Positions 33,286 through 45,389 of a DNA stretch of 64,000 nucleotides are shown piece by piece. This DNA comes from an uncultured Desulfurococcales archaeon. GTDB taxonomy: Archaea; Thermoproteota; Thermoprotei_A; EX4484-217-1. Location: the NCBI GenBank assembly GCA_964496035.1, contig CAZBXI010000001.1, positions 1,126 through 65,125 on the forward strand, read 5' to 3'. The translations under genes were made by a program, and so were the position numbers. The notes beneath the pieces are model-generated. The model was not told the origin of the DNA and did no database searches. It worked only from the letters and a program-made list of their open reading frames with translations. How positions within the stretch are numbered: the stretch's first letter is position 1; each line of letters opens with the position of its first letter.

Positions 33286-35106
33286 TTAGATTTCTATTTT
33301 CACTATGGCGGGTTCTGCTAGTCTACTATCTCTTACTATAGCATAGAATCTAGGCATATAATAAAGTGCTTCCTTAAAAATTTCCAGCCTATTTTCCGAA
33401 ATATATCCTGCTAAGGTCTTAGCCATATAGTCTAAGTTTTCTGGTTCAGAAAGTTTAAAGGATATTTTTAATGCACTATTTGCTATTATGCCTTCATCTA
33501 TGTCTAGTGGTTGCTGCGTTATTATTATGAAGCCTATACCATACTTCCTACTTTCCATCATTAGTCTCGCTACTAGAGAAGGTTCTGTGCTTCTTCTACA
33601 TATTCTATGGGCTTCATCAATAACTATGTAGTGTGATAATCCCATACTCTCTCCTGAAACATACATGTAATGAGCTATTTTTCTTAGCAATGTTTCTGAG
33701 AGAATAGCTTTCACGTGGTCCCCAGGTAGATTAGCCATAGCTATTACGCTAGGTTTACTAAGAATATCTGAGAAGCTTATTGTTGTTTCCCTAAATATAG
33801 ATGTAGACAATAATCTGATGTATGGTTTTAATCCTTCATATCTTGATCTTTCACCACTACTTCTAGCATATTCTATTCTTTTCTCTATAACCCTAAGTAG
33901 TGTCAGAAACGTCGGGGGTTTAAATTTCCATGTTTCAGGGTCATCATTTACTATTCCTTTTTCAGCATAAGCTTCTTCTAAAAGATCTTCAAGAACAGCT
34001 CTTTGAAGGTTACCTAGCCTAAATACGCGTTGTATAGTGTCCGCTACTTGAACTATTCTTTCTCTTGGAGAACACTCGTCAAGTTCTAAAGGATTTATAG
34101 ATATTTTAGAAGCATCTACTACTATACCGCCAAGTTCCTCAATAACTTTAACGTATTCGTTATGTGGATCTATAACTAAGCATGGTATTGCCCATTGATA
34201 GTAAAGTTCCTTTATTAGTTTTTTAGCTAGGCTTGATTTACCTGTGCCACTACTTCCAGCTATCAAAATGTGGTAATTTATTTGAGAATAAGGGTTATAA
34301 GTGTATGTTCCTGATTCAACTCTCCAATACCAGCTTGGCGACTTGGGTATGTGAAGTTTTTCCTTTAACCATACATTAGCTGGTTTACCGTACACCAATC
34401 TAGAAACTATTCTACCTATCTTAACACCTTCTATTGCCTTTTCCTCTTCCACCATGCTTTCAGTTGCAACACCTTTAAACATCGCGTATGGGAGAGAAAT
34501 CCATGAAGCTATAGCATATAGGTTCCTGCTTATTTTATGACCTTTTAGAACAAGTAGTGATAAAGAGAATATTACTCCAAGAATATACACTATCTCTTCG
34601 TAGAACCCCATAGGCTTAACTAATGTTATGAGAGAGGCGATAGCTATTATAATAAATGACTTAGCTAGTAGAGTTTTCTGAAAGCCCTTTATAGATATTT
34701 TTAGGTCTTTTATTCTATCGATTACTATGTCTCCTCTTTTAAGAATTAAGCTCCATGAGTAGTAGGATGCTATGAAGGCTGAAAACGTTATAGCGTAAGT
34801 TACAGGGTTTCCAACAATGTTGTCTATATTCATCATTAACATAGCCAATTTATACTCAGGAGTAAACATTAAACATATGCTTAATACCTTCTTTACGGTT
34901 AACAGTGAAAGTATAGCTGAGAATGTTTCTGTTAGCGCTGCTATCGGAGATTCAAGAATTATAGACGCAACTATTAGAGATAACGAAATGAAGGCCCATA
35001 TCACATATATGTTCGCTATAATAAATGCTTGAATGTTAGATGCTAAGTAAAGTATTATAATTAACTGAGCTACAGCTATCAAAGTACATTTTAATCCTAG
35101 ATCCAT
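33286..35106 (-). CDS. membrane-anchored HerA/FtsK/VirB4-superfamily P-loop ATPase (about 8 N-terminal TM helices plus a DUF87-like ATPase)
   Basis: Walker A AGSSGTGKSS, Walker B HYIVIDEAHRI, and C-terminal IITQQP. The N-terminal 240 aa are highly hydrophobic. Confidence 0.7.
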   Translation of the reverse strand: MDLGLKCTLIAVAQLIIILYLASNIQAFIIANIYVIWAFISLSLIVASIILESPIAALTETFSAILSLLTVKKVLSICLMFTPEYKLAMLMMNIDNIVGNPVTYAITFSAFIASYYSWSLILKRGDIVIDRIKDLKISIKGFQKTLLAKSFIIIAIASLITLVKPMGFYEEIVYILGVIFSLSLLVLKGHKISRNLYAIASWISLPYAMFKGVATESMVEEEKAIEGVKIGRIVSRLVYGKPANVWLKEKLHIPKSPSWYWRVESGTYTYNPYSQINYHILIAGSSGTGKSSLAKKLIKELYYQWAIPCLVIDPHNEYVKVIEELGGIVVDASKISINPLELDECSPRERIVQVADTIQRVFRLGNLQRAVLEDLLEEAYAEKGIVNDDPETWKFKPPTFLTLLRVIEKRIEYARSSGERSRYEGLKPYIRLLSTSIFRETTISFSDILSKPSVIAMANLPGDHVKAILSETLLRKIAHYMYVSGESMGLSHYIVIDEAHRICRRSTEPSLVARLMMESRKYGIGFIIITQQPLDIDEGIIANSALKISFKLSEPENLDYMAKTLAGYISENRLEIFKEALYYMPRFYAIVRDSRLAEPAIVKIEI

Positions 35107-40690: not shown

Positions 40691-40947
40691 TAATGTGCAC
40701 CTTTCTATACTAGGGTAAGGGATAGATAATCTGTATTTTGGTGTATAAATATATGGTTTGATGTACTTTTCCTTAGTTATATTTATATTTAATCATAGGT
40801 ATTACTGAAATATACATTTAAATAATGCCTTAGTACCTAACTCTATATCTTTAAATAAATAATTAAAGATATTAATGGGTATTACTTAGGAGAAGAAGGT
40901 ATATATTTAAACTTCATAGAAATCTGACGTACACTAAGGGGGTTTGC
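40691..40947. promoter_or_regulatory. 257-bp highly AT-rich divergent intergenic region with multiple TATA-like motifs
   Basis: tataaatat, tatatttatattt, catttaaata, ctttaaataaat, tatatatttaaac between the acyltransferase operon and the Zn-ribbon/Ced-like cluster. Confidence 0.4.
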
Positions 40948-41157
40948 ATGCCTGTTATTTACCTTTGTAGGAATTGCGGTTTCGTATTATACCGGTTCGA
41001 GAGAGTAGGTCAAGACTATTATGGATTGCCAACACCTAGCGAAATAATGAATTGGTATGGTGGTGTTTGCCCTAAATGTAATTCGAAACTTAGAAAACCT
41101 ACTTTATCGAGCATAAGAGTTGGATTTCGAGGGAAACTGATTACCTTAAAGCAGTAG
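40948..41157 (+). CDS. small zinc-ribbon protein
   Basis: CRNC...CPKC four-Cys ribbon; 69 aa. Confidence 0.4.
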   Translation: MPVIYLCRNCGFVLYRFERVGQDYYGLPTPSEIMNWYGGVCPKCNSKLRKPTLSSIRVGFRGKLITLKQ

Positions 41158-41353
41158 CTTTTAGTTGAACTTTCTTTACCGTACTTTTCTTTTCTTCACT
41201 GTAGTGATTTAATAATTCTATAATGGCTTTTCTTATTGCCTCACTTCTACTTGAAAAGTAACCTTTTTTAACAAGTTCATCAAGTTCCTCGAGAATTTCT
41301 CTTCTCAGTTTGAACGTTACAACAACGGTGTCATCGAGCCATATCGTCGCCAA
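41141..41353 (-). CDS. CopG/ribbon-helix-helix DNA-binding protein
   Basis: TVVVTFKLRREILEELDELVKKGYFSSRSEAIRKAI is a canonical RHH beta-alpha-alpha. Confidence 0.6.
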   Translation of the reverse strand: MATIWLDDTVVVTFKLRREILEELDELVKKGYFSSRSEAIRKAIIELLNHYSEEKKSTVKKVQLKATALR

Positions 41354-41476
41354 TTAGAATATCACCTAAAAGTAATACCGTAGTACATAATATAAAAGTA
41401 TTTTTAGTATCACGTATCTTCAGTAGTTTTTAAGGTTTCTGAAAGTCTCTTTTAAAACCCCCCTATATTCTTACGG

Positions 41477-41719
41477 GTGAAGAAGGTGGGTATAGACAGC
41501 TTGATTAGTGATTTGACTACAAGAGTTGTCATGGCAGCTTGGGCTTTATTCATGCTATCATGGGCTTTAGGGTGGTTATTGAAGGGTTCACCTATTCCGA
41601 TATACAGAGTTAAAAGGTTCGGCCAGGATATGGTTGAGGATGCTATAATGGGTGCTTTTTGGCTTGCTGTTGGTACAAGTATTTTCGCACTTATTAAGTA
41701 TTTAGCTTCAGCATTTTAG
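41477..41719 (+). CDS. small 2-TM membrane protein (CedA1-like)
   Basis: 80 aa with two hydrophobic helices; first gene of the cluster. Confidence 0.45.
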   Translation: MKKVGIDSLISDLTTRVVMAAWALFMLSWALGWLLKGSPIPIYRVKRFGQDMVEDAIMGAFWLAVGTSIFALIKYLASAF

Positions 41720-41745
41720 TTTAACAACCTAACGCGTGAAGAATC

Positions 41746-43197
41746 ATGGATCAGTTCCTTATATTAGCATACTCATTAGCTATACTTACATATTATCTAG
41801 GCGTATTCATATATGCCCTACCTATACCATGGTGGGGTATTAAAAAATGGGCTCCTACACTTATTTACGATGCTCTCGCTACAGCTATTCTCATTTTCAT
41901 GTTTTCTTCTATTATTGAACTAGTAAATTACCTTGGATCTATGCTGAACATTGATTGGCAATTATATTTTGAATGGATTACAGGCAGAATTGCCATTATA
42001 GGTTCCTTCATAACAACCCTCATGACCTTCTCTATGATGCTGTCTAGTGCGGGCATGAAAGCATTATCTACGGCAGGATTAGGCCCTATTATAAGTTTAG
42101 CAACGTATACTTTAATTGTTCTAGAAATTCTTTTCATACTAGGTCTCATTTTTCAACAATTCTTTGCTAAAATATTGGTAATAGGTGTATTACTGTATTC
42201 TGTGCCTTTCAGGATAACAAGGGGTGCAGGGGCATCTTTAATTGCTATGTCGATAATTTTTACTTTAGCTCTACCATTGCTACCGGCATTTGCAGAAGCT
42301 TTTGTTGTTGAAAGCGCTGAGAAAAATATTAGTGAGGTTATTGAAAAAATAGGTAGCATAAATGTTGAAGAATGGGGTATAGTTTTCGTTAAAGGACAAA
42401 TACTCGATAAAAAAGGACAGCCATTAGCTGGTGCTCTTACGAAATGGTATGCAAAACATAGTGGTGGAGAAGGCTTCGTAGCATCATATCTTACTTCAGA
42501 AGATGGATGGTTTAATGCTGGTAGACCATACGGAGGACTTCCATACAACGTACTATTAAGGCTGGAGGTAATCTACTGCGGTGTGAAGTTAATTCCAGAA
42601 TTAGAAACCATAGATCCGCATAAAGATTTCATATATGATCCTCTTAGAGATCCTAACGCAGATTACTTCATTACATTGAAAATGAAAAACGCTGTTATCA
42701 TGGATAAATACTTCATTATTAAATCAAGCAATCCTAAGATTCTAAGCTCATTAAAAATAAGTAAAAGCGAAGATGAAGTGAAATTAAAACTTAACGTAAG
42801 TGAAGAGTCAACATTAACTATAGTCGTACATGAGGACTATAATGCTGATAAAATCATGATTAACAACACGCAAGCAAAGAGCTATGATGAAGTGAAATCC
42901 TGGGGTCAAATCAATTTCTACGTTTACAACATCCCCTTAGAAGAAGGTTCGTACGAAATAAAAATACTCATTAACCCCGAGCAGCGAATAAGGAACCCAA
43001 AAATAAGCGATAAAGGGTACTTAAAGTCTTTATCAGGAGGCATAAGTAACTTAAGAGATTTAGGTAAAACCATAGCTAGTGTCATTTTTGAATGGATAAT
43101 GCTGCCGATAACATACCTTTCAATTCTCATAATGTCTACGTACTCCTTAGCTTATGTTATTGGTGGTAGAAGAGTAAGGTTACCTATAAAGACTTGA
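41746..43197 (+). CDS. polytopic membrane protein (CedA-like; 6-7 N-terminal TM, a soluble middle domain, and a C-terminal TM)
   Basis: Hydrophobic N-terminal 190 aa and a C-terminal helix. It sits between the two small TM genes and the ATPase. Confidence 0.5.
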   Translation: MDQFLILAYSLAILTYYLGVFIYALPIPWWGIKKWAPTLIYDALATAILIFMFSSIIELVNYLGSMLNIDWQLYFEWITGRIAIIGSFITTLMTFSMMLSSAGMKALSTAGLGPIISLATYTLIVLEILFILGLIFQQFFAKILVIGVLLYSVPFRITRGAGASLIAMSIIFTLALPLLPAFAEAFVVESAEKNISEVIEKIGSINVEEWGIVFVKGQILDKKGQPLAGALTKWYAKHSGGEGFVASYLTSEDGWFNAGRPYGGLPYNVLLRLEVIYCGVKLIPELETIDPHKDFIYDPLRDPNADYFITLKMKNAVIMDKYFIIKSSNPKILSSLKISKSEDEVKLKLNVSEESTLTIVVHEDYNADKIMINNTQAKSYDEVKSWGQINFYVYNIPLEEGSYEIKILINPEQRIRNPKISDKGYLKSLSGGISNLRDLGKTIASVIFEWIMLPITYLSILIMSTYSLAYVIGGRRVRLPIKT

Positions 43198-43207
43198 GGG
43201 TGATATT

Positions 43208-43399
43208 ATGGACCCCTTTAAAACTATGATAATAATGTATGTTCTTACCGTAATATTTGTAGTGTACAACGTACTCACATACTCAAGTCAAATGAATGTA
43301 TTTGTATCAATATTGTTCTCGATTCTAATAGTTTTCCCAGTACTAGCTATCCTAGCTTACTATAAAAACATAGTAAGAGGTGAAATTGATGGAAAGTAG
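43208..43399 (+). CDS. small 2-TM membrane protein (CedA2-like)
   Basis: 63 aa with two hydrophobic helices; overlaps the ATPase start by 20 bp. Confidence 0.4.
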   Translation: MDPFKTMIIMYVLTVIFVVYNVLTYSSQMNVFVSILFSILIVFPVLAILAYYKNIVRGEIDGK

Positions 43400-45263
43400 T
43401 AAAATAATACCGTACATGCTCATAGTAGTGGGCTTAATGATTTCCATGTACATTTCTAATCCTCAGATTTTTGAAAAACCCTATTACGCAACATTGCTTG
43501 TAGCCTCAACAGCAATTACTATATCAATAGCAATAATGGGTAGAGAGAAAATTAGGAAGCTATTAGGCGCTAAGCTCAGAAAAAGTATCATTAAAGATAT
43601 AAATGATTTCCACGTTGAAGAGAACATAGTAATTATGCCTAATAAGGACATTTATAAAGGGGCAATAGTATATACGGTAAGCGAAATACCGTATACGTTT
43701 GCCGATGTGTCACAAAGTTTTCTACTGCAACAAATAAGGGCATTTACTAACTTTATAGTTGCATCCGAAGACAATACTTCCTTACTTTTAATTAAAAAGA
43801 GCGGGGATGTGAGAAAATACGTTAGGAACCTTGAACGTACCATAACTAATTATAAAGTGCTGCTTTCCGCAGATCCTGCTAACCCCTACATTCAGAGAAA
43901 ACTGCAGAAACTTGAAGCATTATTTAACAGGATAAGTAGAGGAGAAACACCAATCAATGTAAAAATATATTTAATAGCTTCAGCCCAAGACAGAAATGTT
44001 AGGAAACTCTATGAAAAGTTAAGAAGGAAAGGTGAGACATTATCTTCATCGTTTAAAGCAAGCTTAGGGCTAGAGTTAAGGAAGGCATCTGAAGAAGAAG
44101 TATTAGAAGCAATAACACATGGCCTTCTAGGTGAAAGTAAACCTATAACCATGCTTGAATCTGACTTGAGCTTCCTAACACCTATAGGATATGTTAAGCG
44201 GCCTAAAATTTCTGGTGAAGGAATATTTATAGGAGAGGATATTGACTATGGAACGCTAGTATTCTACGATTTCGAAAAACACTTAACTAAACATATGGTT
44301 ATCATTGGACCTACAGGTAGGGGTAAAACAACGTTATTGTACACGATAGCTAAGAGGGTTATTGAACAATACGATGTTCCCATATGGATTTTGGACTTAA
44401 GAGGAGAATTTATCGGATTAAGTAAAACAATGGGTATCTCAGTAGTAGACCCTGAGAAAACACCAATCAACTTAATGTTACCATGGTTTACTAGCCCAAG
44501 GCTTAGAGCAAGGCAGTTAATAGATTTAATTAAATCGTTAACAGATTTAGAACCCACAGAAGAGTACATATTATACATGTCGATACTTAAATCATATGAA
44601 CGTGCTCAGCAGCCTAACCTAGAAACGCTAATAAGAGTTATTCAAGAAGAAAAATCATCGAGTTCAGAACTAGAACTAAAGTTCTACACCTTACTTACAA
44701 AAATAGAGCAGTTAAATAGCAAAGTATTTCTAGGAAGCAGTTACGGCAATGTATTCTCCATAGTTAAGAAACCCGTAATTTTTGCCCTATATAAGCTACC
44801 TGAAGAGTATAGGAAAATATATGCGTTGGCGATCCTACAAATACTTACTAATTACATGTTAACATTAACGCCGACGAACAAGCTTAGACGCTTAGTACTA
44901 ATAGATGAAGCTTGGAGGCTTACAGATACTAAATCCGGATCTAAAATTATTAGGAGTCTAATCAAGGAAGGTAGAGGCTACGGGTTAGCAGTTGCTCTTG
45001 CCTCACAAGACATTACAGATTTCCCAAAGGACGTACTTGACAACGCCGGCACTGTCATCGTATTTGGCTCCAATAGTAAGGACTACATAGAAGCTGTAGC
45101 TAGGTACATGAAGCTTAATGAGGAGGAGAAAGAGAGAATGACGTGGTTGAAAACAGGAGAGGCACTAATCAGAATTACAGGGGATCCTAGACCAATATGG
45201 GTAAAAATAATACCGGAAAGCATGGAGGCTCAGAGCATAGTATCTAAAGCAGAAAATAGGTAA
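43380..45263 (+). CDS. membrane-anchored HerA/VirB4-like ATPase (CedB-like; 2 N-terminal TM)
   Basis: Walker A IGPTGRGKTT, Walker B VLIDEAWRL, and C-terminal ALASQD...VFGS. Two N-terminal TM helices. Confidence 0.7.
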   Translation: MKLMESSKIIPYMLIVVGLMISMYISNPQIFEKPYYATLLVASTAITISIAIMGREKIRKLLGAKLRKSIIKDINDFHVEENIVIMPNKDIYKGAIVYTVSEIPYTFADVSQSFLLQQIRAFTNFIVASEDNTSLLLIKKSGDVRKYVRNLERTITNYKVLLSADPANPYIQRKLQKLEALFNRISRGETPINVKIYLIASAQDRNVRKLYEKLRRKGETLSSSFKASLGLELRKASEEEVLEAITHGLLGESKPITMLESDLSFLTPIGYVKRPKISGEGIFIGEDIDYGTLVFYDFEKHLTKHMVIIGPTGRGKTTLLYTIAKRVIEQYDVPIWILDLRGEFIGLSKTMGISVVDPEKTPINLMLPWFTSPRLRARQLIDLIKSLTDLEPTEEYILYMSILKSYERAQQPNLETLIRVIQEEKSSSSELELKFYTLLTKIEQLNSKVFLGSSYGNVFSIVKKPVIFALYKLPEEYRKIYALAILQILTNYMLTLTPTNKLRRLVLIDEAWRLTDTKSGSKIIRSLIKEGRGYGLAVALASQDITDFPKDVLDNAGTVIVFGSNSKDYIEAVARYMKLNEEEKERMTWLKTGEALIRITGDPRPIWVKIIPESMEAQSIVSKAENR

Positions 45264-45301
45264 AATATAATAAAACCCTGATATTATTGTTCTAAATGAA
45301 A

Positions 45302-45340
45302 CCGTGCGATCTAACCCCGCATGGGTAGAGATGAGCACGG
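45302..45340 (+). other. GC-rich interrupted hairpin downstream of the ATPase gene
   Basis: ccgtgc/gcacgg (6 bp), atct/agat (4 bp), ccc/ggg (3 bp) nested stems with a 5-nt loop. Local GC is much higher than the surroundings. Confidence 0.35.
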
Positions 45341-45389
45341 GGGTCACCTCTAGGCAACACTACACCCTTTAATTCCAACGTCTTTCTCG

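Follow-up and report, generated by a model that had tools for sequence, protein, structure and literature searches.

A probable chromosomal Ced system with an elongated CedA in an uncultivated Desulfurococcales-like archaeon

Results

Organization of the ced locus

Six co-located open reading frames were confirmed by the ORF list and by hydropathy analysis within the 64-kb stretch of DNA studied here (the window), with the positions, sizes, overlaps and TM helices that an initial annotation had given them. Two small genes lie directly upstream of the others, as had been described. They are a Zn-ribbon gene on the plus strand (40948-41157, 69 aa, CxxC…CxxC at C7/C10/C41/C44) and a convergent, CopG-type RHH gene on the minus strand (41141-41353, 70 aa, Pfam RHH_1 with E 6.6e-9 and 35.9 bits), which overlap by 17 nt. 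The spacer upstream of the Zn-ribbon gene (40691-40947) comprises 257 bp and is indeed AT-rich, with a GC content of 0.268 compared to 0.363 for the window. Four genes on the plus strand follow: cedA1 (41477-41719, 80 aa), a long form of cedA (41746-43197, 483 aa), a gene in the position of cedA2 (43208-43399, 63 aa) and cedB (43380-45263, 627 aa). The intergenic distances in this order are 26 nt, 10 nt and an overlap of 20 nt. Hydropathy analysis revealed two TM helices each in the 80-aa and the 63-aa protein, two at the N-terminus of the ATPase CedB, and six N-terminal helices plus a C-terminal one in the 483-aa protein. Since relatives carry these genes in identical order, the six ORFs represent real genes and not chance ORFs.

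The cedA1-cedA-cedB core is syntenic in the related MAG loci L001, L002, L003, L005, L006 and L012-L014. It is flanked by genes for Lhr, a PAPS-reductase-like protein, PriL, Hsp20, a nucleoid protein and PCNA, and relatives keep this order of housekeeping genes even where CedA identity falls to 42%, so that the proposed comparison of synteny in related genomes gave a positive result for core and flanks alike. The initial annotation had pointed to the contiguity of all four ced genes, in contrast to S. acidocaldarius, where cedB is separate. This contiguity is seen here, but since cedA1-cedA-(cedA2)-cedB is contiguous in every relative examined, the position of cedB next to cedA is no peculiarity of this locus. 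The location is chromosomal, as for other ("domesticated") Ced systems: no tRNA gene and no compositional break (GC is uniform) were found in the 64-kb window, and the annotated genes include no integrase.

CedA1 and the operon promoter

CedA1, a VirB2-like pilin, scored 119.9 bits with the NCBIfam model Ced_CedA1, exceeding the cutoff of 100. Its residues 6-78 match the CedA1 pilin of A. pernix (PDB 8DFU, E 1.3e-22), and identity to the orthologues of relatives is 53-89%. With two TM helices and an N-terminus that does not resemble a signal peptide, the protein has the features of a CedA1-type pilin. TedC (8DFT) was not matched even at E ≤ 10, leaving 8DFU as the only match of the two. Judging by orthologue lengths and alignment, translation may instead start at a GTG at 41486, which would result in a protein of 77 aa.

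A TATA-like box, TTTTAAAA (41452-41459, plus strand), lies some 25 nt in front of the start of cedA1 and is kept in L001-L003; it is likely to be the promoter of the ced operon. One ACTTTC copy of the ANTTTC type adjoins this box. The element is not conserved in the close relatives L001-L003 and hence gives no mark of damage-inducibility. As the ANTTTC/Orc1-2 DNA-damage promoter element is documented for Sulfolobales only, inducibility by other means is still compatible with its lack.

CedA and its extracellular insert

The best NCBIfam family for the 483-aa protein is CedA (154.7 bits, E 3e-45, nearly full length), below the equivalog cutoff of 330. A profile of the long CedA retrieved proteins of Saccharolobus/Sulfolobaceae listed by NCBI as "DNA import protein CedA". 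In all relatives, the precomputed annotation places Pfam PF27251 ("CedA1") on the pilin as well as on the N-terminus of CedA. The two aligned with each other and have a PIP loop in common, the N-terminal hairpin of CedA being paralogous to CedA1. The protein is a VirB6-like, polytopic membrane protein with the six to seven TM helices and the CedA1-like N-terminus of CedA, and would act as a channel or platform.

The expectation that it extends beyond a 6-TM core by a large soluble domain and a C-terminal TM helix held: an insert of about 260 residues (residues ~184-444; 42295-43077, plus strand) is placed between TM6 and TM7. According to AF2 secondary structure it consists of two β-sandwich domains (~212-313 and ~314-410), and the positive-inside rule predicts that it faces outward (extracellular). 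Foldseek returned transthyretin-like folds, SlaB and Gram-positive pilins, Pfam gave a weak Dioxygenase_C match on residues 212-240, and one homologue carries the name "carboxypeptidase regulatory-like domain-containing protein". The insert diverges faster than the TM core. It is lacking in CedA of Sulfolobales, which is about 250-265 aa long, while the long form was found in at least ~109 representative clusters (Desulfurococcales, Fervidicoccaceae). Long CedA thus appears to be common outside Sulfolobales and not special to this locus.

The CedA2-position protein and the CedB ATPase

The 63-aa protein is conserved in L001, L002, L003 and L006 with 73, 63, 37 and 27% identity, respectively, and counterparts were also called in L013 and L014. 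No family in the Pfam or NCBIfam models matched it; by position and architecture it is a candidate CedA2.

For the 627-aa ATPase, CedB was the best NCBIfam model with 260.9 bits (residues 30-610 on profile positions 17-586 of 590; equivalog cutoff 700), followed by CedD with 79 bits, and every VirB4, TraC and TrbE model remained at or below 46 bits. Pfam assigned AAA_10 and DUF87. Walker A (GPTGRGKT, residue 310) and Walker B (LVLIDE, residue 505) motifs are present, and together with the N-terminal helices they characterize a membrane-anchored VirB4/HerA-type ATPase, as expected for CedB. Since CedA and CedB score below their equivalog cutoffs, they do not qualify as orthologues in the strict sense of annotation. 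Both models appear to be tuned to Sulfolobales.

Further elements in the neighbourhood

A hairpin element of ~60 nt with an invariant CCYCUAGGC tail (45299-45358, plus strand) starts 36 nt past the cedB stop codon. It is conserved and covarying and has no match in Rfam, and it seems to be an unclassified structured RNA or a 3′-UTR element.

Another ATPase of the HerA/VirB4 superfamily, with a polytopic membrane part, is encoded on the minus strand 6 kb upstream of ced, next to the Lhr gene (33286-35106, 606 aa). It has about five to six N-terminal TM helices in addition to Walker A/B motifs, i.e. a polytopic N-terminus and not TM+NTD. Its best NCBIfam match is CedD, with 67 bits over the ATPase domain only (cutoff 600), and it shares 24% identity with CedB over 345 aa. 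A counterpart is found at the same position in L003. On these grounds the protein is a candidate for a second, CedD-like motor.

The Zn-ribbon/RHH pair and its putative operators

The best NCBIfam matches of the RHH protein were aCcr1_fam (37.9 bits, cutoff 60) and CdrS (37.3 bits). According to PMC9976878, the aCcr1-box has the sequence A(T/G)G(A)TA(G)A(T/G)TACN and is sited between TATA box and start codon. Both this sequence and this placement are fitted by the 9-mer AGTAATACC, which together with GTAGTAC forms a tandem putative operator between the TATA-like box and the start codon of the RHH gene (41371-41386, plus strand). The tandem pattern, which was chosen post hoc, is unique in the window (0.03 expected) and is kept in L001, L002, L003 and L012. 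Two more AGTAATACC boxes, 80 bp apart, were found upstream of the Zn-ribbon gene (40798-40806 and 40878-40886, minus strand), so that all three copies in the 64-kb window sit in the two spacers flanking the pair. The same arrangement recurs in L001, L002, L003 and L012; in L012 four matches compare to 0.24 expected, and none of 200 shuffles reached this number. This pair differs from known aCcr1/CdrS in that its RHH protein scores below the family cutoff and is accompanied by a Zn-ribbon gene. No cdvA context is visible in the 64-kb window. The Zn-ribbon gene is present in L001-L003, L012 and L013 and absent from L005, L006 and L014.

Discussion

The locus very probably encodes a chromosomal ("domesticated") Ced system in a Desulfurococcales-like uncultivated archaeon, in agreement with the Ced-type reading of the initial annotation: CedA1 exceeds its family cutoff, and CedA and CedB have these families as best matches over nearly their full length, though below the cutoffs. 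Ced, a crenarchaeal system related to type IV secretion and conjugation machineries, moves chromosomal DNA from cell to cell (PMC9905601, PMC11823120, PMC11868833). Compared to Ced of Sulfolobales (Saci_0567-0569 and Saci_0748, with CedD = Saci_0667; van Wolferen 2016, PMC11823120, PMC11868833), the same four protein types are present, with the 63-aa protein as candidate CedA2, homology is detectable in sequence for CedA1, CedA and CedB, and the N-terminus of CedA likewise resembles CedA1 as a paralogue. Differences are the position of cedB beside the cedA group, the extracellular insert of CedA, scores of CedA and CedB under the equivalog cutoffs, the lack of a conserved ANTTTC element and the lack of Ups-type aggregation pilus genes in the annotated neighbourhood of the locus. 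Another close system is that of A. pernix, a host of Desulfurococcales type with a chromosomal system, whose CedA1 pilus has been solved (Beltran et al. 2023, PMC9905601) and whose CedA1 also has no signal peptide. According to Wu et al., A. pernix has no CedA2 homologue, whereas the locus described here has a small gene in the CedA2 position. The Ted system of Thermoproteales (TedA/TedB/TedC; PMC9905601) resembles the locus in overall architecture and presumed role. In sequence, its proteins are not recognisably similar to those of Ced, and the signal peptide of TedC is cleaved (PMC9905601), whereas the pilin found here is clearly of CedA1 type and has no cleavable signal peptide. From the bacterial T4SS core VirB2/VirB6/VirB4 (R388 TrwL/TrwI/TrwK, PDB 7O3V/7O41) the system differs by its chromosomal location, by the import direction published for Ced and by the tandem β-sandwich form of its extracellular domain; VirB5, VirB7-11, VirD4 and a relaxase were not found here.

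The homology of CedA1 and CedA to VirB2 and VirB6, the membership of the ATPase in the VirB4/HerA superfamily with weak matches to VirB4, TraC and TrbE models, and the occurrence of aCcr1-type RHH genes on conjugative plasmids of Sulfolobales (PMC9976878) would also suit a rival reading, in which the cluster belongs to an integrated conjugative plasmid or ICE and serves it as transfer module, an archaeal T4SS exporting the DNA of the element. We consider this origin highly improbable. The large difference between its CedB and VirB4-type scores speaks against a grouping of the ATPase with plasmid TrbE/VirB4, the flanks are syntenic housekeeping genes and not plasmid genes, and neither tRNA genes and compositional breaks in the window nor an integrase among the annotated genes were found. 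A tblastn search against plasmids hit only the bare, generic ATPase domain at ~25% identity, in a database (PLSDB) that appears poor in archaeal plasmids (Methanomethylovorans is the only archaeal genus in the summary). The chromosomal syntenic flanks and the CedB-type ATPase largely refute the plasmid/ICE reading. A CedA1 pilus serving mainly adhesion, aggregation or biofilm contact, or DNA export in place of import, is improbable as well, albeit to a lesser degree. The adhesin-like β-sandwich domains of long CedA, similar to Gram-positive pilins and SlaB, would fit such a role, as would the lack of Ups genes, which are Sulfolobales-specific (PMC11823120), in the annotated neighbourhood, and the action of S. 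islandicus CedA1 and CedE in export (PMC11868833). Nevertheless, every experimentally tested Ced component is needed for DNA transfer, pilus lumen and VirB4/VirB6 homology suit a DNA conduit, and the sequence offers no argument for another substrate.

For the suggestion that the Zn-ribbon and RHH proteins are local regulators, there are arguments on both sides. Between the divergent RHH gene and cedA1 lies a spacer of 123 bp, which is unusually conserved and contains the tandem aCcr1-box-like site, and in S. islandicus overexpression of aCcr1 repressed SiRe_2100, a CedA paralogue later named CedE, about 7.5-fold. That the two proteins are dedicated to the ced operon is nevertheless doubtful: the ced loci L005, L006, L011 and L014 have neither the pair nor its boxes, the tandem site lies ~65 bp ahead of the TATA box of cedA1 in a geometry of autoregulation, and the two further boxes precede the Zn-ribbon gene and not ced. 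The boxes flank the Zn-ribbon/RHH genes themselves, outside the cedA1 core promoter. The two genes appear to be neighbours and not conserved partners of Ced, forming a separate aCcr1-like module that most likely regulates itself via the putative AGTAATACC boxes. The module may also control ced; with the pair absent from the more distant ced loci, a Ced-specific role is not more than possible.

The cluster is ordinary in kind, consisting of known archaeal machinery (pilin, channel, small membrane protein, motor ATPase). DNA import by Ced has been demonstrated in Sulfolobales only (PMC11823120, PMC11868833), and in the present lineage transfer of DNA and its direction would follow from homology to Ced. 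It seems that the four ced genes constitute a single operon whose transcription is driven by the TATA box in front of cedA1. By homology, CedA1 would polymerise with membrane lipids to a hollow pilus of conjugative type, as solved for A. pernix, with CedA as VirB6-like membrane platform or pore at its base and the 63-aa protein as a presumed accessory subunit in the position of CedA2. CedB, tethered by its two TM helices, would drive assembly and/or DNA translocation like VirB4. The outward-facing domain of CedA is apparently new to description, as no mention of it was found in the Ced literature examined. We speculate that this tandem β-sandwich reaches into the pseudo-periplasm or S-layer space, where it might stabilise the pilus, direct it or touch the partner cell.

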